A DNA stretch of 27,028 nt from a virus (Duplodnaviria; Heunggongvirae; Uroviricota; Caudoviricetes). How positions within the stretch are numbered: the first letter of the stretch is position 1; the number at the start of each line of letters is the position of its first letter. Shown here piece by piece: positions 1 to 19,645 of this stretch. A program made the position numbers and the translations under genes. Under the pieces are notes generated by a model, which saw only the letters and a program-made list of their open reading frames with translations, was not told where the DNA came from and did not search any database. The stretch lies in the IMG/VR virus record IMGVR_UViG_2579778989_000013; one strand, 5' to 3'.

Positions 1-1530
1 CTGTGGCCCCGCCGGACCTGCTGGTCCAGCCACCCCCGGATCGCCTTTGTCACCTTTTGGCCCCGGCGCACCTGCCGGACCTGCTGGTCCAGCCACCCCC
101 GGATCGCCTTTGTCACCTTTTGGCCCCTGTGCGCCTGCCGGGCCTGCGGCTCCCGTATCCCCTTTCGGTCCCTGTGGGCCTGCCGGACCCGTATCGCCCT
201 TGTCTCCCTTCGGGCCGGGAACGCCACCACCTGCAGCAACCTCTTCTGCCTTCTGTCTCGCCGCCTTGGCCTCATCCATTGCCGCCTTCACAGCCTTCGA
301 CGTGGCAGCCTTTGTTTCGTCATTACTGGCAGTATCACTACTTAGCTGCACAATTCCCTTCTGTGCCGTCGTCGCGTCCACCACATTTGCTGCGCTGCCC
401 GCCGGACCAGGCTCCCCGCGGGGGCCCTGAGGCCCAGCTTCGCCTCGTTCACCTTTCGGACCTGCCGGACCTGTCGCACCGGCATCTCCTTTCGGTCCCT
501 GCGGCCCCGCCGGGCCTCTCTCTCCTGCAGGTCCGCGTAGCCCCTGCTCTCCCTGAGGCCCTCGTTCTCCCGGCTCACCTTTTTCACCTGCGGGACCGGC
601 TGGGCCGGGGTCACCTTTAGGTCCCGCATCACCTTTCGGCCCGGGTGGTCCCCCCGGGTCTCCGGGGGCTCCTTTTTCACCTCTGGCCCCGGTTTCACCT
701 CGTGGACCAGCAGGCCCCTGAATCCCCCGCTCTCCTTGCGGCCCCACCGGTCCTGTTTCACCGCGTGGTCCTTGTGCGCCTTGTGGACCTGTTTCTCCAC
801 GAGGGCCTGCATCACCTTTCGGTCCGGTATCACCTTTAGGGCCTCTGGCATTCTCTGCCATACGCCTGGCCTCTTCAGCACTAACCGTAGCAGCCTCAGC
901 ACGTTTAAGAACGTCTCCGGCGGCCTCATGAGCCACTCTGGCGGTTTCAGCATGTTGTCTGGCATCATTCGCGTCTGCTGCCGCGGCCTTTTCAGATTCG
1001 CATGCCCGGGTCGCCGCTTCTGCAGCTTCACTGGCTTTTTGTCCGGCTTCAGCCGCCCTGCTGGTTGCCGTCTTTGCACTGTCAGATGCACTCTTCGCAC
1101 TGGCTGCTGCACTGTCTTTTGACTGTGTGGCCTGAGTGTTTTTTGTCGCCGTGTCTTCATTCAGGCGACGAATAGTGGCAAGGTCATCAGCCACATTATT
1201 CTGTATCTGCCGGAAATCTGTCAGCAGTTCTCCGGGTATGCTCACCTCAACAAGACTGCGGCGTAACAGCATATTGAGCGTCACCGTACTTTCGGTCCCC
1301 TCAATACGCACACGTCCGTAGACAGCAGTCTTCCCTTTCACCGTCACCGAAACCGCATACTCCCCCGGATCCATCGTCATTCCGTAATATCCACCTTCAC
1401 GGGTCACTGCCGACGCACTGGTGCCGCTGAGCGCATCCGGTGAAACTGTCAGCGCCGTCAGGGTAATATTTGCTCCTGATATCGCCTCACCATCAGGAGA
1501 TTTCAGCGTCCCCGAAACAACAACACTCAC
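1..1530 (-). CDS. phage side tail fiber protein, N-terminal part (gene continues beyond window start); contains collagen-like Gly-X-Y repeats
   Basis: Minus-strand frame is open from GTG at 1530 (RBS GGAGGTGGAG just upstream) to the window edge. My translation reads [24 protein letters not shown]..., then an Ala/Ser-rich segment, then long [22 protein letters not shown]... repeats, as in lambdoid Stf-type fibers. Not in the ORF track because it has no in-window stop; track ORFs 3..620(+) and 342..1160(-) are other frames of the same repeats. Confidence 0.8.
12..125. repeat. near-perfect 63-bp tandem direct repeat (two copies) inside the collagen-like region of the tail fiber gene
   Basis: Sequence ccggacctgctggtccagccacccccggatcgcctttgtcaccttttggcccc occurs at 12-62 and again at 75-125, a period of 63 bp (21 codons). 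Confidence 0.8.
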
Positions 1531-1601
1531 ACTCCACCTCCGTTAAACACTTTTTTACGGGCAGACAATGCACTGTCTGCCCCCTGTTTGATCCCAAGTT
1601 G

Positions 1602-1773
1602 CTCAACAAAACTCTGATAATGCTGCGCAGCCACCCGCACCATCACGGTATGCCGTGGTGTGGTTACCTTCTTTTTCGTCAAGAAACTGGTCGAGGATTT
1701 CAGGCGCAGAAGCGCCCGCAGCAATCAGCGCCAGAACGACCGCTGATAAACCATAGCGGAATTTCCTGCTCAT
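1602..1773 (-). pseudogene. truncated SAR-endolysin (phage lysozyme) N-terminal fragment, about 56 codons
   Basis: ATG at 1773 lies 4 nt after the holin stop. Translation MSRKFRYGLSAVVLALIAAGASAPEILDQFLDEKEGNHTTAYRDGAG matches the signal-anchor-release N-terminus of pinholin-associated endolysins, then diverges (GCAALSEFC) and stops. The catalytic domain is absent. Confidence 0.6.
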
Positions 1774-1777
1774 CAGC

Positions 1778-1993
1778 TTACTCTCCCCGCGCCGCCTTAC
1801 GCCGGTCCTCTTTGATTTTGAAATACAGGTTAGTCAGGTACGTCAGCAGCCCAAACAGCAGACTCCCCAGCACGCCTATTGCCGCCCACTGAGACGGGGA
1901 AACCCTGTCCAGCAACTGCAGGAACCAGTAGCCCGTTCCCACCGCTGACGTGGTGTATGACACACCTGTTGTGATTTTTTCCATCTGGTACAT
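1778..1993 (-). CDS. class II pinholin (phage 21 S21-like), 71 aa with dual-start motif MYQM
   Basis: Translation [71 protein letters not shown] has the same length and architecture as S21 (two TMDs, Met1/Met4 dual start, charged C-terminus). Lies inside track ORF 1778..2047. Confidence 0.8.
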
Positions 1994-2069
1994 ACCCCGT
2001 CTCCCGCAATCCGGAAGCTCACAACAATATAAAGACCACCGGCACACACCGATGGTCCCTTGCGCATGC

Positions 2070-2315
2070 TTACATCATCATGTCGCTGTCAGGTGTAGGT
2101 TCACCGCCATCTGAAGCACTCCCGTCACCCGCGATACCTTCCGGCTCAGGAACCGCTGGTACGCCCAGCAGCTCATCCAGAATGGCATCCACTTCTGCAT
2201 CAAGACGCGACTCAAGGTTCTGGCGGAGTTTCTGTTTCAGTGCGCTCCGGACTTCTTCAGAGCGCAGGACTTCCTTCACTGCCTCAGCAGTGACCAGGGA
2301 TGTGATTTCTGACAT
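2070..2315 (-). CDS. hypothetical acidic protein (81 aa) between nanS-p and the holin
   Basis: In-frame ATG within track ORF 2070..2477, translation [30 protein letters not shown]... Same orientation as the late operon; no recognisable motif; weak RBS. Confidence 0.4.
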
Positions 2316-2340
2316 GGGATTTTCTCGCTGAAAGGGGTTG

Positions 2341-2523
2341 TTAAGGAGTAACGGGTTCTTCGGGCTTGCTTCCGGCTGACTGACTGGCGCTGATTTTCTC
2401 AGCGGCCCTTTTATCAATCTGCCTGCACCAGAAATCGCGCACAGCCCTGTACCCACCCGAAAGAAGATACAGCACACAGACCGCCGTACAGAAGTACAGC
2501 ATCACCTGATGAATAAATGTCAT
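2341..2523 (-). CDS. hypothetical small membrane protein (60 aa)
   Basis: Track ORF with a hydrophobic stretch VMLYFCTAVCVLYLLSGG (one predicted TM helix); positioned in the late operon. Confidence 0.35.
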   Translation of the reverse strand: MTFIHQVMLYFCTAVCVLYLLSGGYRAVRDFWCRQIDKRAAEKISASQSAGSKPEEPVTP

Positions 2524-2619
2524 AATTTCTTACCGTTATGGTTGACAATGAGAATTGTTTTCATTTAAAAACCAATGTACGAAAGCATCTTTTCTTTACA
2601 TTCTCCATTGGGATTACCT

Positions 2620-2656
2620 CCGCCAGCTTCCATTCCTGCCGCTGGCGGCTTTTTTT
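2620..2656 (+). terminator. intrinsic-terminator-like hairpin with T-tract, plus-strand orientation
   Basis: ccgccagc-ttccattcctgc-cgctggcgg followed by cttttttt; a TTGACA -35-like hexamer lies at about 2542-2547 upstream. Confidence 0.35.
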
Positions 2657-2661
2657 AGCAA

Positions 2662-4572
2662 TTATGCGGCTGCTCCAGCTTTGTTTGCTTTAACTTCCAC
2701 CGTATCAATAAGTACAGGGTAGGTTTCTGCACTACCTGTAATATCCGTAATGACAAACCTGTTGAGTCCATTAGCAGTATTGGCCCATTTCACCAGGTCA
2801 AACGCCTGTCCATCCACACCATCAAGCACCGGAGTAACATTAATGCTGTTACTGCCCTTAAATTTAAATGCAAGCGTATGCCAGTCATGGTCGAATGCGC
2901 CAAACGTGCCAAGTTCTTTTTGTTGATTAACTGTATGATGGTATGCAACATTAATACTGGCTTTATCTGTCTGGACAAAGAAAGAACTCAGATGGCCTTC
3001 ACCACCCTCACCCGGCCATTCCGCTATTCGCCAGTACAAACCAAAGGCATACTTGTTTCTGGTTGTCTCAAGATTGACGTTTTCGGGGATTTTAAACCGG
3101 ACAGCAATTTCTCCGCCTTTTTCCAGTAAAAGTTTTGCCTTGTCTGCAGCAATATCACAGTACATTGACCAGGATTTCGCGCTGTTATTTTTCTCAATTC
3201 GCAGAGCTTTATTGCCGCTGTCATCAACCAGTGTGCGCCTGCCATACACACCGTCCCAGCCATAGGGTTTCAGCTGATTGTCTGTAGCTTTTTTGGCATC
3301 GTAAAAAATTACAGACTCTGAGGTGGTAACCGGTCTGTCTGGAACAACCACCCCGGCAGTACCATTAACAAACGCAGAAGACTTACCCGCGCAGCTCAGA
3401 ATCGCCGTTGCCAGACGGTCGGAAATAATCCCACGGCGAGCCCATGAACTGAAATGGCTCGCCCTGTCCTGTGACGTCCAGGTGGCTGAGCTGTCACGCC
3501 ATTTCGAACCGTAATAACCGATACCCGGAATGTCCGGGTCTTCTTCCGGTTTGTTCGTCGGCACATTCACCCCGTTCTCATCGGTCATGAACGGTACGAA
3601 ATGGATATTCTTTTCCGTTTTATTTTTATAGCTGCCGTACACCGTCTGGTACGTGGATTCGTTCTTCTGCTTCCAGAAATACGTCGTGTCCCCGCATATC
3701 CAGGGAACACCGCCAGCAGAGCCACCGACGCACTGGCCTGCCATATCCGCCAGGTCTGCACGGAATTTATCAACCAGCGCACCAAACTGTGCGGCATGAT
3801 TTGCCGGCGTACCGCCAAAATCAAATTCCCCCTGCATCCACACCACGGCAAACAGCACATTTTTCGGGTTCTTCTCCAGTGCCGCTTTTGTTCGACCGAT
3901 AAGGTCCTTATACAGCGGCTTGTCCACACCCCAGCGGGTTGAATTCTCCGAGGCGCCACTCGCGTCACTGTATGTGCCATCAGCTCCGGTGGTGAACGCT
4001 GAACCACCACGACAGCACGGAACCAGCAGAATGCCCGCATTCGCCGGTATAAACGGCAGCAGTTTTTTGGCGATATGCAGCCCCTGCCCCACGGTTCCGT
4101 ACTGCCCCTTTGACAGGTCCGCTTTCGGATGGTTAAGACGGCTCATGTCCTGCACATCATGCAGACAATGGTCCGCCGGAATGATGTCGTTATATTTGCA
4201 TGCTGCACCGCCCGGTGTCACCGTACTGCGACGCGCTAACTGTTTAATACGTGGATCAGGGCTGTCGAATGTATCCGGTAATGGCAGTCCCTCACCGTAT
4301 GACATACCATTGGACTGACCAGCAAGCGCGATCACATAGTAATATTCTGGCGCAACAGAAGGCGCTGAGGTCGTCGGACGGTTGCCTGGCTCCTCTGGTG
4401 ATGAGATGCTCCCCTCACTCACAACTGGCTGGATGAACTCCGCACCATAACCAGCTGTCGAAATCAGCGCACTACCATAAGGCTGCCACCCTTCCTTCAG
4501 TTTTTGAGTTATTCGTTTCGCAAGGTCTGACGGCGACGCCGCCCTGACAACATCATAGTGTTTAAATGCCAT
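2662..4572 (-). CDS. nanS: prophage 9-O-acetyl sialate esterase NanS-p-like protein (DUF1737 N-terminus plus SGNH/GQSN esterase domain), 636 aa
   Basis: Track ORF with RBS GGAGGA before the ATG. N-terminus MAFKHYDVVRAASPSDLAKRITQKLKEGWQPYGS resembles DUF1737; the motif VIALAGQSNGMSYG is the GQSN esterase signature. Size and position (between Q and the holin) match nanS-p genes of Stx-type prophages. Confidence 0.8.
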   Translation of the reverse strand: MAFKHYDVVRAASPSDLAKRITQKLKEGWQPYGSALISTAGYGAEFIQPVVSEGSISSPEEPGNRPTTSAPSVAPEYYYVIALAGQSNGMSYGEGLPLPDTFDSPDPRIKQLARRSTVTPGGAACKYNDIIPADHCLHDVQDMSRLNHPKADLSKGQYGTVGQGLHIAKKLLPFIPANAGILLVPCCRGGSAFTTGADGTYSDASGASENSTRWGVDKPLYKDLIGRTKAALEKNPKNVLFAVVWMQGEFDFGGTPANHAAQFGALVDKFRADLADMAGQCVGGSAGGVPWICGDTTYFWKQKNESTYQTVYGSYKNKTEKNIHFVPFMTDENGVNVPTNKPEEDPDIPGIGYYGSKWRDSSATWTSQDRASHFSSWARRGIISDRLATAILSCAGKSSAFVNGTAGVVVPDRPVTTSESVIFYDAKKATDNQLKPYGWDGVYGRRTLVDDSGNKALRIEKNNSAKSWSMYCDIAADKAKLLLEKGGEIAVRFKIPENVNLETTRNKYAFGLYWRIAEWPGEGGEGHLSSFFVQTDKASINVAYHHTVNQQKELGTFGAFDHDWHTLAFKFKGSNSINVTPVLDGVDGQAFDLVKWANTANGLNRFVITDITGSAETYPVLIDTVEVKANKAGAAA

Positions 4573-4765
4573 GAATCCTCCCGGCCGGGATAATATTGTG
4601 AGTAAAATAAGGAGCGGGCTGAAGTCCGGAAGTTACAGGACAATGGCAGAAGGGAGACTACAGCCCGCAATTCGAAAAAGGTCGCGCAGTTGCGCAGAGT
4701 GATTACTATAGGGTATTATTCGCCAGCTGAAATATTACTTCACGTTTCATTGTTTATTCCTTGCC

Positions 4766-4794
4766 GCCCGCGTCTCCCAGCGCGGGCTTTTTTG
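4766..4794 (+). terminator. intrinsic terminator hairpin, plus-strand orientation, in the Q-nanS intergenic region
   Basis: gcccgcg-tctcccag-cgcgggc followed by ttttttg; a second hairpin agcccctc-cgga-gaggggct lies at 4805-4824. Confidence 0.4.
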
Positions 4795-5055
4795 TCCATA
4801 AGAAAGCCCCTCCGGAGAGGGGCTGGAGAGTGGCGCTATGTGCCATTGCATGGTGCCGGGTGCCTCCCGGTGAGTTCAGCCCGGTGCCACTAAACCCGCG
4901 TCATTCTCGTTTTGATAATCAGAGATTATACCGTCACCAGTCGCCCCTCCGCTCAGGGGGATTCACCATGCAGTTTTTTTCTAACAAATTCTCATCCGGG
5001 CAGACAACATTCAACTGACTTAATTGTGAGGTATGTAACATTCCTGTTGAACGGA

Positions 5056-5088
5056 TACAAAAAAAGCCAGCCACCAGGGGAGGCTGGC
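5056..5088 (-). terminator. intrinsic terminator on the minus strand, candidate tR' of the late short transcript
   Basis: Minus-strand RNA would read gccagcc-ucccc(u)ggu-ggcuggc followed by uuuuuuugu. Confidence 0.55.
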
Positions 5089-5265
5089 AAACTCGTAGAG
5101 CAAAATGCTGTTACGCAAACTTCGTTACAGGGTTATCCTGCAATACTTAAAATATACAATATTTAGAAAACTAATAGTGCCACATGAGATTTTTAAGATT
5201 TTGTTATTAATTGCGGTCGTACCTTCCTTTCTGTGTACTTTCCGTATAGCTCACAGGATTCTGGG

Positions 5266-5293
5266 TACAAAAAAACCCGCGCATCGGCGGGTT
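5266..5293 (-). terminator. intrinsic terminator on the minus strand immediately downstream of Q
   Basis: Minus-strand hairpin aacccgc-cgaugc-gcggguu followed by uuuuuuug, about 45 nt after the Q stop. Confidence 0.55.
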
Positions 5294-5338
5294 CGGCTGC
5301 GTGGCAATGTAACCACTCTTATCATGATATGCAGATTT

Positions 5339-5773
5339 TTACGATCGTAAACTATTTTTTCGCTGATAAAATACAGAGCTTCTCCCTCCCGGCAATTCAC
5401 GCTCAACATACCGATCCATCTCAAGCCTCACTCCCAGCATCATCAGCATGCCTTCAACAATCCCCTCCGCTTTGTGAAGGCGTTTACCTATACAGGTGTC
5501 AGAGCACCCATGTTTCCGTGCCAGCGCCATGAACGTCTCCCCCAACACGTAGTAATCAACCAGCAAGTCATGCAGATCGCGATTGTTCCGGTAAAGGCGG
5601 GCTATGCACCCGCATATCACCATCGCATCATCGTCACAGCACTGTGGACGTGATTTTACTTTTTCGGGGATCAGTCCCTTAAATCCGGCAGCAATGGGCG
5701 ACCATGTAACATCCTCATAGTTATTTACCGCCCATGCCCCCCAGCGCTCAAGAACCTGCCGGATATCACGCAT
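5339..5773 (-). CDS. Q: late-gene antiterminator Q (phage 82-type Q family), 144 aa
   Basis: Translation [60 protein letters not shown]... with a Cys-rich zinc-binding core, as I recall for Q82-family proteins. Lies immediately after rusA as in DLP12/Stx-phage nin-Q modules. Internal start inside track ORF 5339..5872. Confidence 0.75.
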
Positions 5774-5960
5774 CAGTATCTTTACCCCATCCGCGATGAA
5801 CCATAAGGACGCCATTGACGACGGCGTGCTTTTTCGCATCTTTATCATCAATGTATTTTCTGACTGTAGCACGATTGCAGTTCAGTATTCTGGCGACTTC
5901 TGTCTGATTTCCCCTGGTGCAGATCAGTAATTCAGGTATCGTTTGAATTTTAGCATTCAT
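5766..5960 (-). CDS. small helix-turn-helix protein (64 aa), overlaps rusA stop (1 nt) and Q start (8 nt)
   Basis: Translation [44 protein letters not shown]; HTH-like segment [19 protein letters not shown]; track ORF 5766..5963. Confidence 0.45.
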
Positions 5961-6322
5961 CAAATGTTCTCCAGTTCGGTGATTTTTATCCCCACTCTAC
6001 CGCCAGGCACTTTCACGCCGCGAATTACGCGAATGTCATCGAATTGCTCGTCGTCTTCCGCAAATCCGGCGTGGATAAGAGAGTCGAGTAAACCTTTCAG
6101 GATGTTATCGAGGTCGCGACGGCGGGAATCTGGTGGTTCAGCAATAATTGTGATGCGAAGTCGTGATTTAGTGAAAATGTCTAATCTGAGTTGCCGGATG
6201 ATTTGCTGTACGTCTTTTCGGTATTTCTGGCCTTTATCGCTGATGTAGTACTGGCTTCCCCGTCTTCGCCAGTAGGTATTCACCGTCGGCGGCCAGGGAA
6301 GCACAAACTCATATTCATTCAT
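5960..6322 (-). CDS. rusA: Holliday-junction resolvase RusA
   Basis: Translation MNEYEFVLPWPPTVNTYWRRRG...RRRDLDNILKGLLDSL matches RusA signature motifs (LPWPPS/TxN, RRRDLDN). ATGA overlap with the upstream YbcO-like gene. Confidence 0.9.
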   Translation of the reverse strand: MNEYEFVLPWPPTVNTYWRRRGSQYYISDKGQKYRKDVQQIIRQLRLDIFTKSRLRITIIAEPPDSRRRDLDNILKGLLDSLIHAGFAEDDEQFDDIRVIRGVKVPGGRVGIKITELENI

Positions 6323-13132: not shown

Positions 13133-14215
13133 TTACCCCCTGAAACCCGGCGGAATTTCGGTGTCCGGTTCAGAAATGTGATTCACGCAACGCAGGCTGA
13201 CTGCGCCAGCCTTCGGCAGCGACCACGGATTTTCGAAATTCCTGTTCGGGCCAAAAAACGTCGATGCCTGCTGAACAAATTCAGTTCCCGCTTTCCCGGT
13301 AGCCTCCAGGTATCTTGCGTAACGCCTCACGCCATCCAGCACGACATCCGGTGACACCCCTTCGCGTAATCTGGCCCTCCAGGCATTGAACGCGGATTTC
13401 TTCGGGTTTGACCCTGCCCGATGCGGATATTCACGCCAGACCCGTTCGAACACGTCAGGATAATCAACTCGTCCCGCAGACGGTCCCGGCATCGCCCGGG
13501 TTAACCCAATCGGCTTCCCGCTCATCGCGGAATCGGCTTCAGGCTGCTGCGGTTGGCGTTGTTGCTCCGGTTCGACGATCAGCACCTGCTGCACACAACG
13601 CCCGGAATCTGCTTCCGGTGTCGTGCCATCTGGTCCTGGACGTTCAGTCAGAACAGGACAAAAATCCCCCTGTGGGTCCGTGGCGATTTTTTCGCCATGG
13701 ACCAGAAGGGTTTTATCCCTTTCCTGTTCCTGTTCCTGTTCCTGTTCTTGGCTTGAAAGGGGCTCTGAAGGGGCTTCAATTTTCCGACATGATTCACGTC
13801 TGACATCCAGGTGGAAATCATCCTTATATCTATCATAAAAGGATGATAAAAAAGGATTTTCCAGCAACGCGGAATATTCATTTCTTACCCCAGCACAACG
13901 GTTATCGCCAGGTTTCAGCGATTCACCAACCTGCCATGCTGCCATTTCATGCACCCATACAACCTCAGAATCATGGTCATAGCTGCAAAAACCAGCCTCG
14001 CAAGCCATTTGAAGCCCCTTAGAAGCCCCTTCAGGAGCAAGTCCGGTTTCGTGAGCAATGTACAAAACAGGCAGGTAATAAAGGCCCAGCATATTGGAAT
14101 GAGGCGAGGTCATCATATACAACGCCACTACCATACATTCCGGACCAGACTTCCTTAGTTTTCGCCCTGTATCGCCTAACCAGAACTGAGGTGAAATTGT
14201 TGCGTAATTACGCAT
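13133..14215 (-). CDS. phage replication initiator / replisome organiser (O-like), 360 aa
   Basis: Position between cII and the DnaC-like loader; RBS GAGGGGA; internal QE-repeat linker and internal repeats/AT-rich patch suggest an ori within the gene. Family not firmly identified. Confidence 0.7.
   Translation of the reverse strand: MRNYATISPQFWLGDTGRKLRKSGPECMVVALYMMTSPHSNMLGLYYLPVLYIAHETGLAPEGASKGLQMACEAGFCSYDHDSEVVWVHEMAAWQVGESLKPGDNRCAGVRNEYSALLENPFLSSFYDRYKDDFHLDVRRESCRKIEAPSEPLSSQEQEQEQEQERDKTLLVHGEKIATDPQGDFCPVLTERPGPDGTTPEADSGRCVQQVLIVEPEQQRQPQQPEADSAMSGKPIGLTRAMPGPSAGRVDYPDVFERVWREYPHRAGSNPKKSAFNAWRARLREGVSPDVVLDGVRRYARYLEATGKAGTEFVQQASTFFGPNRNFENPWSLPKAGAVSLRCVNHISEPDTEIPPGFRG
13723..13746. 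repeat. hexanucleotide microsatellite (CCTGTT)x4 inside the initiator gene, encoding (QE)n
   Basis: Perfect tandem cctgtt copies at 13723-13746 with degenerate flanks; in-frame, read as EQEQEQEQ on the minus strand. Confidence 0.8.
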
Positions 14216-14247
14216 AGTCCCCTCGCATACAAGATTTACTCCATACC

Positions 14248-14404
14248 GCAGACGGTCCCGGTATCTCCCGGGTTAACCCAATCGGCTTCAGGCTGCTGCG
14301 GTTGGTGTGACTGCACATTGGTGTGACTGCACATCTTCACAGACGGTCCCGGTATCTCCGGGTTAACCCAATCGGCTTCAGGCTGCTGCGGTTGGTGTTG
14401 TTGC
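14248..14404. repeat. two tandem partial copies (about 60 bp each) of an internal initiator-gene segment, located in the cII-O intergenic region
   Basis: cgcagacggtcccggtatctcccgggttaacccaatcggcttcaggctgctgcggttggtg at 14248-14307 and again at 14340-14404; both match 13475-13565 inside the initiator gene. Separated by a duplicated 14-mer gtgtgactgcacat. Confidence 0.8.
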
Positions 14405-14468
14405 TGGCGAAATTCTTCCAGATGTGGCAGAATTATTCCCGTGTATTGCTCCATGCCCTGCCTGAATA

Positions 14469-15131: not shown

Positions 15132-15209
15132 AGGGATATCCTTTTTCGTACTTTCAGTACGCATTATGATTGAACTGAAAGTTTTTGCAAGTGCTTTAGT
15201 ATCGTACTC
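15132..15209. promoter_or_regulatory. OR-type divergent promoter/operator region between cro and cI
   Basis: 78-bp intergenic region containing the palindrome CGTACT-TTC-AGTACG and further TCGTAC-containing repeats. Confidence 0.5.
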
Positions 15210-15917
15210 ATGGTTCAGAATGAAAAAGTGCGCAAAGAATTCGCCCAGCGGCTAGCGCAAGCCTGTAAAGAAGCTGGTCTTGATGAACATGGTAGGGGAA
15301 TGGCTATAGCCCGTGCCCTTTCTCTTTCGTCCAAAGGCGTTAGCAAATGGTTTAATGCTGAGTCTTTACCGCGTCAGGAAAAAATGAATGCGCTTGCGAA
15401 ATTTCTAAACGTTGATGTTGTTTGGCTTCAGCACGGCACTTCGTTAAATGGAGCGAATGATGAAGATACTCTTTCATTTGTTGGCAAATTAAAAAAAGGG
15501 TTAGTGCGCGTGGTTGGTGAGGCAATTCTTGGTGTTGATGGTGCCATCGAGATGACCGAAGAGCGCGATGGGTGGCTCAAAATTTATAGCGATGATCCAG
15601 ATGCCTTTGGCCTTCGTGTGAAAGGAGACAGCATGTGGCCCAGAATAAAATCAGGAGAATATGTACTCATTGAGCCTAACACCAAAGTATTCCCGGGTGA
15701 TGAGGTGTTTGTCAGAACCGTTGAAGGACACAACATGATTAAGGTTCTTGGCTATGACAGAGATGGAGAATACCAATTTACAAGCATTAACCAGGATCAC
15801 AGGCCTATAACGTTGCCTTATCATCAAGTAGCAAAGGTGGAGTATGTAGCTGGTATTCTGAAGCAATCTCGCCATCTGGATGACATCGAGGCAAGGGAGT
15901 GGCTGAAAAGTTCGTGA
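15210..15917 (+). CDS. cI: CI-like repressor (N-terminal HTH plus C-terminal S24 LexA-type autopeptidase domain)
   Basis: Track ORF, 235 aa; S24 motifs GDSMWP and downstream Lys (NMIKVL); N-terminal HTH; divergent from cro. Confidence 0.85.
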   Translation: MVQNEKVRKEFAQRLAQACKEAGLDEHGRGMAIARALSLSSKGVSKWFNAESLPRQEKMNALAKFLNVDVVWLQHGTSLNGANDEDTLSFVGKLKKGLVRVVGEAILGVDGAIEMTEERDGWLKIYSDDPDAFGLRVKGDSMWPRIKSGEYVLIEPNTKVFPGDEVFVRTVEGHNMIKVLGYDRDGEYQFTSINQDHRPITLPYHQVAKVEYVAGILKQSRHLDDIEAREWLKSS

Positions 15918-15977
15918 CTTCATCGTCACATAGCTGGTAACCAGTGGCCAGAAGAAACGTTTGGGTGAGGAGGATAG

Positions 15978-16319
15978 ATGGCGTTCACTGACCTTGAATA
16001 TCAAGCGGTCAAAAAAGAAGTTCACCAATTCATTGAAAGCATAAGGCCGCCTGAACATATCCGCAATGAACTGGATATTGTTTATAGCATCAATGACCAA
16101 ACGATAGATATCGGCGAACAGCGCCCCGTGTGGCAGGGCAACCCAGGTGAAACAAACATCCTGCCATCAGCAAGAATCAAGTACATACGTTCTCTGGATA
16201 GATGGAAAATCTATTGGATGCGGAAGGATATGAAATGGCATCAGTACAGTACTGAACTTTCGCTGACTGATGCGCTTGAGCTTGTGCGTGCTGACCCGGA
16301 TTGCTGCTTCTTCGGATGA
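15978..16319 (+). CDS. hypothetical protein (113 aa), first gene downstream of cI
   Basis: Track ORF with strong RBS GAGGAGG; same strand as cI; no motif recognised. Confidence 0.6.
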   Translation: MAFTDLEYQAVKKEVHQFIESIRPPEHIRNELDIVYSINDQTIDIGEQRPVWQGNPGETNILPSARIKYIRSLDRWKIYWMRKDMKWHQYSTELSLTDALELVRADPDCCFFG

Positions 16320-16386
16320 GTGAAGAGACGTTTGGATGATGGATGGTCGCAGAGATGCGGCCTGATTCTAAAATAGGATATAAAAA

Positions 16387-16848
16387 ATGAGAATACTAGG
16401 TGTTAGAGCGGCGCCCAAAGTTACATCTTTTGTTGTATATTGCACTAATGAGTCTGCACTCAAATGTGTTGATGTTATTAAAATACCTTCGACCTTAGAC
16501 ACACCAGAAAAATTAAAGTATGTGAGAAATAACATCCTCGACATTCTTAATTTATATAATGTTGAATTAGCTGCCATACGCGTTACTGAATCAAACTCTG
16601 ATAATCTTAGCATTGACCGCCTTTATATAGAAGCTGTTATTCAAGAAGCATTTTCAAGCAGTGATGTAAGAAAATATTACACTATTAGAAAATCTGGCAT
16701 GAAATCATCATTGAACCTAACAGAGATCGAGTATAAAGAAATATTGAAGTCACACCGCAATATAAATGGAATCGATAATTCTGGTTTTACAACTGAAACA
16801 AATGAAGCTGTTTTGGCTGCTCTATCTGCGGAGGTAAGGGGATGCTAA
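16387..16848 (+). CDS. hypothetical protein (153 aa), translationally coupled to the downstream kinase gene
   Basis: Track ORF; its 3' end overlaps the kinase start by 7 nt; AT-rich codon usage unlike flanking phage genes. Confidence 0.55.
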   Translation: MRILGVRAAPKVTSFVVYCTNESALKCVDVIKIPSTLDTPEKLKYVRNNILDILNLYNVELAAIRVTESNSDNLSIDRLYIEAVIQEAFSSSDVRKYYTIRKSGMKSSLNLTEIEYKEILKSHRNINGIDNSGFTTETNEAVLAALSAEVRGC

Positions 16849-17888
16849 CTCCATACAAAAGAGCTGATGTAGAATTCGAATGGATTAGTGATCTAGAAGA
16901 ACAGGGTTGTTTTTCAAAAGTATATCTGGCTCATGACAGACACCTAGCTCATGACTTGGTGATTAAAGAAATAGAAAAAAAAGAAAACACTAACCACGAC
17001 GACTACTTTAATGAAGCAAGGCTTCTCTATAAACATGCACATCCAAATATTGTGCAAGTTCAGTATGCTGCTCAATGTGAGAGCAATATCTATATAGCCA
17101 TGCCATTTTATCATAATGGTTCGCTAAACCAATTAATGAAAAAAAATAATCTTACAAGCAGGGAGATAATACGGTATTCCATTCAATTTTTAAGTGGACT
17201 TTATCATATACACTCAAAAGGTCTTATGCATTTTGATATAAAACCTAATAACATTATGATATCAAACAGAAATGAGGCCATGCTATCTGACTTTGGATTA
17301 TCTCAGTTAGTCAATGAGGAATCGAGAGCTGCGCCTGAGTTTGGATATCATTTTCATGTGCCACCGGAATATTTTTCTTTATCAACAAATGATTATAATT
17401 TCACATATGACATATATCAGGCAGGATTAACCATATATAGAATGTGTGTTGGACATGATAATTTTGAAAGAGAAAGATCTGCATTTAGCACGATTGAACA
17501 ACTCAGAGAGTCGATAATTAATGGCTGCTATCCATTAAAAGAGTATCCTCCCCATATACATAAAAAATTAATAACAATAGTGAACAAATGCATTCATGTA
17601 GATCCAAATGAAAGATATCAATCCGTACTAGATGTACTAAACGATCTCTCAGCTATAAGTGATGGCGTTCTTGACTGGCGTCTACAGATGACGAAACCAA
17701 CTAACGGCACATGCGAATGGCAAAAAAAGTCTGGGGACGCTATACTGTCTATAGTTTTTGACGCAGAAAATTCGTCTACTACTGGTTTTCGTTTATACGA
17801 TGATGGGCGGAAAAGGCGTGCTACGAACTTAACAATATCCTCAGGATGTACCCCTACAAAACTGTATAGGTTATTAAAGGATAACTGA
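16842..17888 (+). CDS. Hanks-type (eukaryotic-like) Ser/Thr protein kinase, 348 aa
   Basis: Track ORF with RBS GGAGGTAAGGGG. Kinase subdomains: Gly-rich loop region EEQGCFSKVY, lysine in LVIKEI, catalytic loop HFDIKPNN (non-RD), SDFG, VPPEY; about 90-aa C-terminal extension of unknown function. Confidence 0.85.
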   Translation: MLTPYKRADVEFEWISDLEEQGCFSKVYLAHDRHLAHDLVIKEIEKKENTNHDDYFNEARLLYKHAHPNIVQVQYAAQCESNIYIAMPFYHNGSLNQLMKKNNLTSREIIRYSIQFLSGLYHIHSKGLMHFDIKPNNIMISNRNEAMLSDFGLSQLVNEESRAAPEFGYHFHVPPEYFSLSTNDYNFTYDIYQAGLTIYRMCVGHDNFERERSAFSTIEQLRESIINGCYPLKEYPPHIHKKLITIVNKCIHVDPNERYQSVLDVLNDLSAISDGVLDWRLQMTKPTNGTCEWQKKSGDAILSIVFDAENSSTTGFRLYDDGRKRRATNLTISSGCTPTKLYRLLKDN

Positions 17889-17890
17889 TC

Positions 17891-18031
17891 ATGAAAAAGC
17901 GCGAGGAAGTAAGCAAGCTGCCTCGCAGACGTGATGCAGCATTAGCGGTTCCCTACAAAAAAGATGAGTTCATAAGCCCTTCTGATGACAAAAAATTTTC
18001 AAAGGCGAAAAGTTTTACATCTACATCTCTA
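17891..18031 (+). CDS. possible small basic ORF (46 aa) after the kinase gene
   Basis: ATG 3 nt after the kinase stop; translation MKKREEVSKLPRRRDAALAVPYKKDEFISPSDDKKFSRRKVLHLHL; no independent support. Confidence 0.2.
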
Positions 18032-18054
18032 AAAGATAAATACTTTAAAATCTA

Positions 18055-18080
18055 GCCCGGCCTCAGCGCCGGGTTTTCTT
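18055..18080 (+). terminator. intrinsic terminator closing the cI-kinase block
   Basis: cccggc-ctcagc-gccggg followed by ttttcttt. Confidence 0.6.
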
Positions 18081-18255
18081 TGCCTCACGATCCCCCACCT
18101 AAAAAAACATAACTCATTGTATTTATTGATGTAACTCGCTAAACCATGCAGTTCTGATCCCTGCCGCATAACCTTCATCAGCCACATTTTCAAAAATAAA
18201 TTTCCTTATATATCAGAATCATACTTCGTAGAGTTAATAAATCACCAAAATTCGT

Positions 18256-18290
18256 ACCAATAGTTCTTGATAATGTCGAACTATTGGTTC
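18256..18290. promoter_or_regulatory. 11-bp perfect inverted repeat in the putative pL/OL region
   Basis: ACCAATAGTTC-(11 nt)-GAACTATTGGT; it contains TTGATA; nearby TTCGTAC motifs resemble those in OR. Confidence 0.35.
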
Positions 18291-18365
18291 ACTATTATCG
18301 TCATCAGCAGGACGCATTACTCACCAGGGCGGTGAATATACAACGATTCGAATATGAATCTACGG

Positions 18366-18380
18366 CGCTGACAAAGCGCA
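18366..18380 (+). promoter_or_regulatory. nutL boxB-like hairpin
   Basis: gcgctgacaaagcgc, about 165 nt upstream of N; same 13-mer as the nutR candidate; resembles the P22-type boxB stem-loop as recalled. Confidence 0.55.
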
Positions 18381-18544
18381 ATAACCAAAGTGAACTTTGG
18401 GGTGTGGTGAAGGGTTCATGGACGGGAATATGTCGCACGTAAAGCGGCGAGGCCTGTGGGACTATTGCCGAATTGAAGTAGGCCGAAACAGGTCGAAATG
18501 GGTCTCCCACCTACCACACCACCAAAGTTCATCAGGAGGTCTAT

Positions 18545-18928
18545 ATGACACGCAGAACTCAGTTCAAAGGCAATTCACGTTCTCGTCGTCGTGAGCGTTT
18601 AAAGGCAAAGGCATTAGCTAACTGCGTACTGGCCCGCGAAGAAGCAATAAGTTCAGAAGTATTACACCGCCCTACTCTAAGCAGAGCGCAGATTCAGGCT
18701 AAAGGTACTCACGAAACGCCTGAGCGCATAGAAGACGCTAAGCCAATTAAGTTCATGGCACAGGACGTGATCTGGCAACAGAAAGAATACAGACGCAATC
18801 TGGAGCGAGCAGCCATTGTGTACGCGAATGAGTTTGGACATAAGCAACCAGAAACTGGTGTATGTCTTCCAAACGTAGCCATTTACGCGGCAGGCTACCG
18901 GAAATCAAAACAACTGACGGCGAGGTGA
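18545..18928 (+). CDS. N: N-like transcription antitermination protein (H-19B/933W-type), 127 aa
   Basis: Track ORF with RBS AGGAGG; N-terminal arginine-rich motif TRRTQFKGNSRSRRRERLKAKALA; first gene after the nutL candidate. Confidence 0.8.
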   Translation: MTRRTQFKGNSRSRRRERLKAKALANCVLAREEAISSEVLHRPTLSRAQIQAKGTHETPERIEDAKPIKFMAQDVIWQQKEYRRNLERAAIVYANEFGHKQPETGVCLPNVAIYAAGYRKSKQLTAR

Positions 18929-18931
18929 TTG

Positions 18932-19645
18932 ATGACCACGCCTTCAGTTTTGCCGCAAAAGTTATGGCGTCCGCTTGCAGAGATTAAAAACTTCGTTGAA
19001 AAAATGCCTGATGGAGTTCGCCTTACGGAAGTTACTAAAAAAGTTAAGACATTTGCCGAACTGTCAGGAAAGGAGAGAAACCAGCTCATAGATTTTATCG
19101 ATAAACGGGAAAGCATCATTGTATTTAAGGTCAGAAAAGAAGGTTCTGGTAACGGAGTAACCTTTTTCCGCCACAAAAAATATGGATATCCCAAACGGGA
19201 AGGAAACGTCACAATCACTAAGGACCTTCAATCAAAATTATGTACCAGATGCGGGCAGACAAAATCAGTCAATGATTTTTATTCAGATGCCAGCAAGCGT
19301 GACGGGAGAGCCATTTATTGCAAGAAGTGCGAATCTGCAATGAAACGCTCACGCAGAAAATGCAACAAATTAATTCTGCAACAACAGGAACCTGAAATGA
19401 ATAACCTCAAAGCAGTTTCACCTTCACCAGAAATACTCAGAAAACAGGCTGAAGAATTGCTGAAAGCCGCCGAAATTGCGGAGAAAAAACGCCAGGAAGA
19501 TGATGCATTCAACAAAAAACTTGCGCCCTTAAAACTTGAAATCCTTCAGGCCGCCGGAAAAATGCAGCTTAAACTGGACGAATTCATCGACTGTATGGAT
19601 GAAATGAATAAAGCAGTTCAGAAGCTTAAAGAGCTGACCGCCTGA
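18932..19645 (+). CDS. hypothetical pL-operon protein (237 aa) with a CxxC...CxxC pair
   Basis: ATG at 18932 (track ORF 18929..19645); motif CTRCGQ...CKKCESAMK; start overlaps the N stop. Confidence 0.5.
   Translation: MTTPSVLPQKLWRPLAEIKNFVEKMPDGVRLTEVTKKVKTFAELSGKERNQLIDFIDKRESIIVFKVRKEGSGNGVTFFRHKKYGYPKREGNVTITKDLQSKLCTRCGQTKSVNDFYSDASKRDGRAIYCKKCESAMKRSRRKCNKLILQQQEPEMNNLKAVSPSPEILRKQAEELLKAAEIAEKKRQEDDAFNKKLAPLKLEILQAAGKMQLKLDEFIDCMDEMNKAVQKLKELTA

Follow-up and report, generated by a model that had tools for sequence, protein, structure and literature searches.

Reviews list the protein kinase Stk of the Shiga-toxin (Stx) phage 933W among the well-characterised prophage abortive-infection (Abi) systems, alongside Rex of phage lambda (PMC6356687). 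The 933W kinase is co-transcribed with the repressor gene cI and its activity aborts superinfection by phage HK97 (PMC3564112), an exclusion that PMC3681748 credits to Friedman et al. 2011. The same source describes a kinase that is silent until perturbed and is switched on by a specific infecting phage; the label it carries in the literature is tyrosine kinase. Rex, formed by RexA and RexB, lies in the slot between cI and the tImm terminator and pL. Here we analyse the genes found in this slot in a 27,028-nucleotide stretch of viral DNA (Caudoviricetes; IMG/VR record IMGVR_UViG_2579778989_000013), hereafter the window. An earlier reading of the letters, hereafter the original prediction, had proposed positions 15978 to 18080 as a candidate kinase-based defence module expressed in lysogens. 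The kinase turns out to be identical to Stk of 933W, and comparison across bacterial phyla suggests that it is accompanied by two partners, a RuvC-fold protein named L0083 and a small basic protein named L0081.

Window positions 15200-18600 are 99.4-99.5% identical in DNA to Stx-converting phages, with 99.4% for 933W. The proteins cI, L0083, Stk and L0081 are each 100% identical to their 933W counterparts; L0084 differs by two residues and N by one. The 933W records give the gene order cI, L0084, L0083, stk, L0081 and then tM, nutL and N (tM is annotated in AF125520), with pM/oR immediately upstream of cI. In the window, on the + strand, cI (15210-15917; Pfam HTH_3 and Peptidase_S24) opens the pRM transcript and is followed by L0084 (15978-16319, 113 aa), L0083 (16387-16848, 153 aa), stk (16842-17888, 348 aa) and L0081 (17891-18055, 54 aa). 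The transcript ends at an intrinsic terminator (18054-18085), in which a hairpin at 18054-18075 with an 8-bp GC-rich stem precedes a T-run and which corresponds to 933W tM. The antiterminator gene N (18545-18928) lies downstream of the block. Three co-oriented open reading frames (ORFs) at 15978-16319, 16387-16848 and 16842-17888, a terminator behind them and a location equivalent to that of rexAB had all been proposed, and all agree with the ORF listing and with the 933W annotation, where cI leads through the block and terminator to nutL/N. By its sequence, the block is the operon cI-L0084-L0083-stk-L0081-tM, which is transcribed from pRM in the lysogen, of a lambdoid Shiga-toxin prophage of the 933W type.

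As a defence candidate the block is not new. It is the type example of the published 933W system and has been studied before, and proposing it again rediscovers a prophage exclusion gene of textbook standing. The place of stk in the cI operon, its neighbours and the terminator all agree with 933W, and the kinase is unchanged in a prophage that is otherwise a mosaic relative. With lambda RexA/RexB the locus shares the slot, the co-transcription with the repressor and the abortive-infection logic (PMC3564112). This likeness is positional, since Rex is an ion-channel-type two-component system whereas the effector in the window is a protein kinase; no protein of the block matched the Rex family in the Pfam scan, and homology to RexA/RexB was not found. 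The best explanation of the whole is, probably, a 933W pRM operon in which Stk is the effector of a mobile three-gene cassette, with L0083 and L0081 as its partners.

Stk matches Pfam Pkinase (E = 2.2e-46) and is a Hanks-type non-RD kinase. The comparison with 933W Stk that the original prediction had called for gave 348 identical residues out of 348 (AAD25427), and the window kinase is, at the protein level, Stk itself and not a mere analogue. The kinase motifs noted earlier are real, and they are invariant across homologs: K42, E58, the non-RD loop H130-F-D132-I-K134-P-N-N137, D150-F-G and P175-E176. A C-terminal extension of about 80 aa is conserved in length and is modelled with high confidence as a four-stranded sheet plus a helix. 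The kinase ATG at 16842 overlaps the L0083 stop codon (TAA, 16846-16848) by 7 nt, as had been described, and a GGAGG stands upstream of this start within the L0083 gene. An abortive-infection function, which had been proposed for the kinase, is published for the identical 933W protein. In PADLOC, Stk matches mad6 (E = 7e-50) and PD-T4-6 (E = 1e-37), both of which cover residues ~20-295 only, i.e. the generic kinase domain. Like Stk, staphylococcal Stk2, PD-T4-6, MAD6 and PglW use a Hanks-type kinase domain as defence effector or signaller, but these systems have neither a RuvC-fold partner nor a small basic ORF, and their kinases are without the C-terminal domain of Stk; PD-T4-6 and Stk2 are catalogued as single genes, in contrast to the three-gene cassette of Stk. 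In some otherwise near-identical enteric copies (four IMG/VR contigs) the stk frame is interrupted next to an intact L0083, so some lysogens may have an inactive kinase.

The partnership with L0083 emerges from synteny. Contigs of a one-genome-per-species set were searched with a profile of L0083 homologs, which gave 39 loci in Gamma-, Beta- and Alphaproteobacteria, Bacteroidota, Clostridia and Acidobacteriota. In all 39 a Stk homolog of 35-57% identity lies directly downstream and is full length wherever the contig permits, complete homologs measuring 327-358 aa. All but one of the junctions are overlaps of 1-8 nt or gaps of at most 10 nt. The reverse search with a Stk profile retrieved 80 viral contigs (Stk identity 37-100%), and an L0083 homolog stands directly upstream in each of the 77 loci where this could be tested; the other three contigs end at the kinase start. 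Over 496 pairs, the pairwise identities of L0083 follow those of Stk with a correlation of r = 0.915. This synteny strongly supports a coupling of the 153-aa protein to the kinase, as was suspected from the overlap of their genes in the window.

Composition delimits the same unit. An AT-rich island (GC content 0.353) coincides exactly with L0083-Stk-L0081, between flanks of 0.46-0.49. The AT-rich stretch reported for 16380-18050 was confirmed (its GC is 0.354, whereas cI together with the 113-aa gene has 0.461 and N has 0.487), but the 113-aa gene, with GC 0.459, lies outside it. The three-gene unit of the original prediction must be redrawn accordingly: its L0083-kinase pair stands, the 113-aa gene is a separate insert, and the 54-aa gene L0081 (17891-18055) had been overlooked. 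As judged from synteny and composition, the conserved cassette is L0083, Stk and L0081, inherited as a unit across bacterial phyla, with Stk coupled in translation to L0083 and the small basic protein.

L0083, the product of the first cassette gene, has been seen as protein. In lysogens of Phi24B, a phage that shares 99.4% identity with the window across the operon region, Riley et al. 2012 found a lysogen-specific spot P2 of 17,096 Da named '933W p23' (PMC3342100), and the computed mass of L0083 is exactly 17,096 Da. A second lysogen-specific spot, P3 (13,472 Da, '933W p24'), is L0084, and the genes of both spots have expression profiles like that of cI (PMC3342100). The expression in lysogens that had been proposed for the block holds accordingly, for stk through its co-transcription with cI (PMC3564112) and for L0083 and L0084 through the proteins found in Phi24B lysogens.

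No match to L0083 was found in Pfam or PADLOC, a search of the PDB with the L0083 profile gave chance-level matches only, and the two NCBIfam matches are far under cutoff, one of them to a RuvC model at E = 0.098. The AlphaFold model is confident (pLDDT 91.6) and superposes on RuvC over 143-145 residues at 12-15% identity, which places L0083 in the RuvC / RNase H-like fold. Catalytic positions were compared by a profile-profile alignment with three RuvC sequences over 140 columns, in which E. coli RuvC was checked against 1HJR; its probability is modest, and it agrees with the fold superposition. RuvC D7 aligns with R7 of L0083, E66 with R65, D138 with E137, which is variable, and D141 with E140. 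Only the last member of the RuvC acidic tetrad D7/E66/D138/D141 is therefore kept. Conservation was assessed in 116 diverse family representatives that are 24-42% identical to L0083. Position 7 is Arg in 115 of them and position 65 is Arg or Lys in all 116; R47, R78, E82 and E87 are likewise found in 116 of 116, E68 in 114, and position 140 is always E or D. We infer that L0083 is a RuvC-fold protein without the metal-binding carboxylates, which carries strictly conserved basic residues in their place. Canonical resolvase activity is unlikely, because basic residues stand at the D7 and E66 positions in essentially all representatives. The place of the RuvC metal site is taken by a strongly conserved but rebuilt one of basic character, which speaks against resolvase chemistry, and the names given to L0083 in databases ('RuvC-like Holliday junction resolvase', 'RuvC family protein') should therefore be read as fold calls and not as function calls. 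L0083 thus differs from RuvC resolvases in its swapped catalytic residues and in being encoded in a lysogenic defence operon. In a set of 1.84 billion proteins, 442 representative clusters at 50% identity belong to the family with E <= 1e-3. The best 150 of these 442 matches measure at most 243 aa, mostly ~150-165 aa, and none of them is long enough for a fusion with a kinase.

The third cassette gene, L0081, starts 2 nt past the stop codon of stk and reaches as far as the terminator. An ORF of 45-90 aa that starts between -30 and +40 nt of the kinase stop is present in 84 of 85 distinct downstream segments. Composition-matched shuffling yields such an ORF in 9.0 +/- 2.6 of 85, and after other long ORFs of the same loci the rate is 17%. 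The small downstream proteins are basic, and an N-terminal MKK, a near-invariant Arg at about residue 13-17 and a C-terminal aromatic motif are common among them. L0081 has no match in Pfam, PADLOC or NCBIfam; it is a small, basic (isoelectric point 10) and fast-evolving protein. Leave-one-cluster-out profiles were scored against 4,501 small ORFs as decoys, and for 12 of the 15 clusters only 0-3 decoys outranked the best held-out member, a weak signal above the decoys which suggests that the small ORFs are related across clusters. The C-terminal Tyr of L0081 was considered as a general phospho-acceptor and rejected, as Phe occupies this place in many homologs.

Of 5,426 complete E. coli genomes, 225 carry the cassette, among them the chromosome of strain ES5, where it is 100% identical and in unchanged gene order. 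In Rac-like prophages of Klebsiella it directly follows an unrelated cI-like repressor, and in Acinetobacter and Haemophilus prophages it likewise stands directly after the repressor; in prophages of A. baumannii it is inserted between tail genes. A P. aeruginosa locus (754-5925) carries it directly downstream of three large same-strand genes, the first with a faint Phage_integrase match and the other two without a Pfam match. In Elizabethkingia the cassette lies beside a LlaJI-type restriction-modification system, ArdA and resolvases; in Flavobacterium (1318-5968) three large same-strand genes directly precede it, two of which encode LlaJI-type restriction subunits (AAA_5 and RE_LlaJI); and in Sessilibacter it adjoins an OLD-family ATPase. 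The cassette occupies cargo slots, whether next to the repressor or in the tail region of prophages, in integrative elements or beside restriction-modification genes, and it seems to ride several unrelated mobile or defence islands.

L0084, the 113-aa gene between cI and the cassette, has a different history. Its product is a full-length family match to both Pfam DUF3024 (PF11225; E = 2.4e-31, model positions 2-112 of 112) and the PADLOC single-gene candidate PDC-S43 (E = 7e-42, model positions 1-115 of 115), and its gene is preceded by a GAGGAGG Shine-Dalgarno sequence, the strong ribosome-binding site that had been noted before. Among the 39 genome loci, only that of Proteus penneri has L0084 and a recognisable L0081 beside the L0083-Stk pair. 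In Salmonella phage SE1 (1745-4054) a DUF3024 gene directly follows the repressor and is followed by a ParA-like gene, and in Stx2 II (1764-3482) a frameshifted, unannotated DUF3024 copy stands after the repressor, followed by a different gene; both are without Stk. In the window two 18-nt direct repeats, GAAGAAACGTTTGGGTGA (15951-15968, + strand) and GAAGAGACGTTTGGATGA (16322-16339, + strand, 3 nt past the DUF3024 stop), which match at 16 of 18 positions, bracket the gene almost exactly, and the pair is also present in 933W. The repeat has the look of a site where recombination exchanges the cargo that follows cI, and the DUF3024 gene seems to be tied to the 3' end of cI, not to the kinase. 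DUF3024 was rejected as a cassette member on synteny, composition and flanking repeats, and the gene is a second, independent lysogen-expressed insert. Our literature search found no paper that mentions DUF3024. In Stx2 II the sequence right after the GAAGAGACGTTTGGATGA copy (GGTCGCAGAG.TGCGGCC) is kept, before the different cargo gene.

How the cassette could work may be pictured as follows. According to the literature, lysogens produce Stk off the cI transcript and hold it essentially silent. Infection by the heterologous phage HK97 switches it on; it then phosphorylates cellular proteins and aborts the infection, and the lysogen dies, an altruistic exclusion like that of RexAB. L0083 and/or L0081 might bind Stk and serve as infection sensor and brake, so that a trigger acting through them, or through the C-terminal domain of Stk, would release or allosterically activate the non-RD kinase; phosphorylation of its cellular targets would then stop growth. 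L0083 might recognise the Fis-like NinH protein of the infecting phage, or the junction DNA on which real resolvases work, and the small basic protein might set the threshold or act as the brake. The HK97 trigger of Stk is presumably gp68. The HK97 record numbers roi as Gp65 and the Q-like protein as Gp69, with the NinH gene right after that of the RusA resolvase, and because of this numbering and order Gp68 should be NinH, a Fis-like DNA-bending protein. It is an attractive but speculative hypothesis that a dead resolvase fold senses a DNA-bending protein linked to a resolvase, or else the DNA structures that this protein makes. The window encodes a NinH of its own (5790-5960, - strand), 68% identical to HK97 Gp68, beside its own RusA (5963-6322, - strand), 90% identical to HK97 Gp67. 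If NinH is the trigger, the resident phage carries a diverged version of it, and its presence would therefore demand discrimination between self and non-self, or else be irrelevant after induction. A literature search returned nothing relevant that connects HK97 gp68 or NinH with a kinase, and one on Stk together with HK97 added nothing relevant either.

Other explanations of the block deserve to be weighed against this one. Reviews treat Stk alone as the exclusion factor (PMC3681748, PMC6356687), and the other defence kinases Stk2 and PD-T4-6 are catalogued as single genes. Were Stk likewise a self-sufficient, single-gene abortive-infection kinase, L0083 and L0081 would be passengers or unrelated, and L0083 might for instance be the true recombination nuclease that its database annotation implies. 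We regard this as unlikely, though less firmly so for the HK97 phenotype itself, given that L0083 and Stk are linked in 39/39 and 77/77 loci, in both search directions and across phyla, that their start and stop codons overlap in most lineages and that the two proteins co-diverge (r = 0.915). A nuclease is further opposed by the basic residues at the D7 and E66 positions and by expression from the lysogenic promoter, not together with recombination genes. It is rather improbable that the cassette is instead a kinase toxin-antitoxin or addiction module that stabilises the prophage, with Stk as toxin, L0081 and/or L0083 as labile antitoxin and exclusion as a by-product. The tight three-gene operon with a small, basic, fast-evolving third protein would suit such a module, as would a kinase that is silent unless perturbed and the occurrence on many kinds of mobile element. 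The tripartite kinase toxin-antitoxin system HipBST is a formal precedent, in which three small co-transcribed genes are likewise arranged around a growth-arresting kinase; the likeness is one of logic only, as the kinase fold of HipT/HipA differs from that of Stk and homology is not expected. However, the cassette has no helix-turn-helix autoregulator, its promoter in 933W is that of the repressor, a specific infecting phage is reported to activate the kinase, and defence genes neighbour the cassette as often as maintenance genes do. The toxin-antitoxin and abortive-infection roles are in any case compatible and not mutually exclusive. Carriage by Shiga-toxin phages could finally suggest a virulence factor that acts on the mammalian host or rewires the physiology of enterohaemorrhagic E. 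coli. This is highly improbable: marine, soil and non-pathogenic bacteria, or their prophages, also carry homologous cassettes, as few as 225 of 5426 complete E. coli genomes carry one, no signal or secretion features were seen, although no formal scan for them was made, and an attaching/effacing phenotype is absent according to PMC3681748.

A more specific form of the cassette explanation sees in Stk the effector of a tripartite defence cassette that spans phyla and has so far gone uncatalogued, in which L0083 would be the sensor or regulator and the small basic protein would set the threshold or act as brake. We put this forward tentatively, at somewhat less than even chances. Several points count against the cassette explanation in general. 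Strict synteny speaks for co-inheritance and probably co-function, and says nothing on who senses what. The homology of the small ORFs is weak across clades; an iterative hidden Markov model search from L0081 returned only 12 close relatives and did not unify them. Should a plasmid with stk and neither partner gene suffice for HK97 exclusion, this phenotype does not depend on L0083 and L0081, which would be modulators at most. The gp68 trigger is presumptive, and its identity as NinH rests on the HK97 gene numbering. The catalytic loop D-I-K-P-N-N of Stk, moreover, resembles that of a Ser/Thr kinase, as opposed to the tyrosine kinase of the literature.

The defence function of Stk is known, whereas the tripartite architecture is apparently undescribed. 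Our literature search found no paper describing L0083-Stk coupling, but the primary Stk papers lay outside this search and 'undescribed' is provisional; nothing relevant was found on RuvC with a kinase in abortive infection. The cassette with its pseudo-RuvC partner is, provisionally, absent from PADLOC and from the searchable literature. The value that is left lies in a hypothesis on the 15-year-old question of how Stk is kept off and then triggered. If it is true, partners that act as sensor and regulator would explain the silence of a constitutively expressed lethal kinase in lysogens, and the cassette would be a three-gene defence family of at least 442 L0083-type clusters at 50% identity that is missing from PADLOC. 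The cassette is found in E. coli, Klebsiella, Pseudomonas, Acinetobacter, Elizabethkingia and many environmental bacteria, and current defence finders overlook it or give it a wrong label.

Beyond the operon, the window represents a lambdoid prophage of mosaic build, whose matches to phage records each cover at most 42% of its length. Its replication region is spanned by no single phage-record match and accordingly does not have the 933W arrangement. Directly after N lies a 238-aa ORF with a TTG start (18929-19645, + strand) that has no Pfam match; at the same position the 933W annotation has the 156-aa gene L0079. In the replication-gene region (13133-14454, - strand), downstream of cII in the rightward transcription, a 360-aa ORF contains a QEQEQEQEQE run. 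The peptide motif QPQQPEAD occurs once in this ORF and twice in an adjacent 72-aa ORF, and these repeats may correspond to DNA iterons of an origin.

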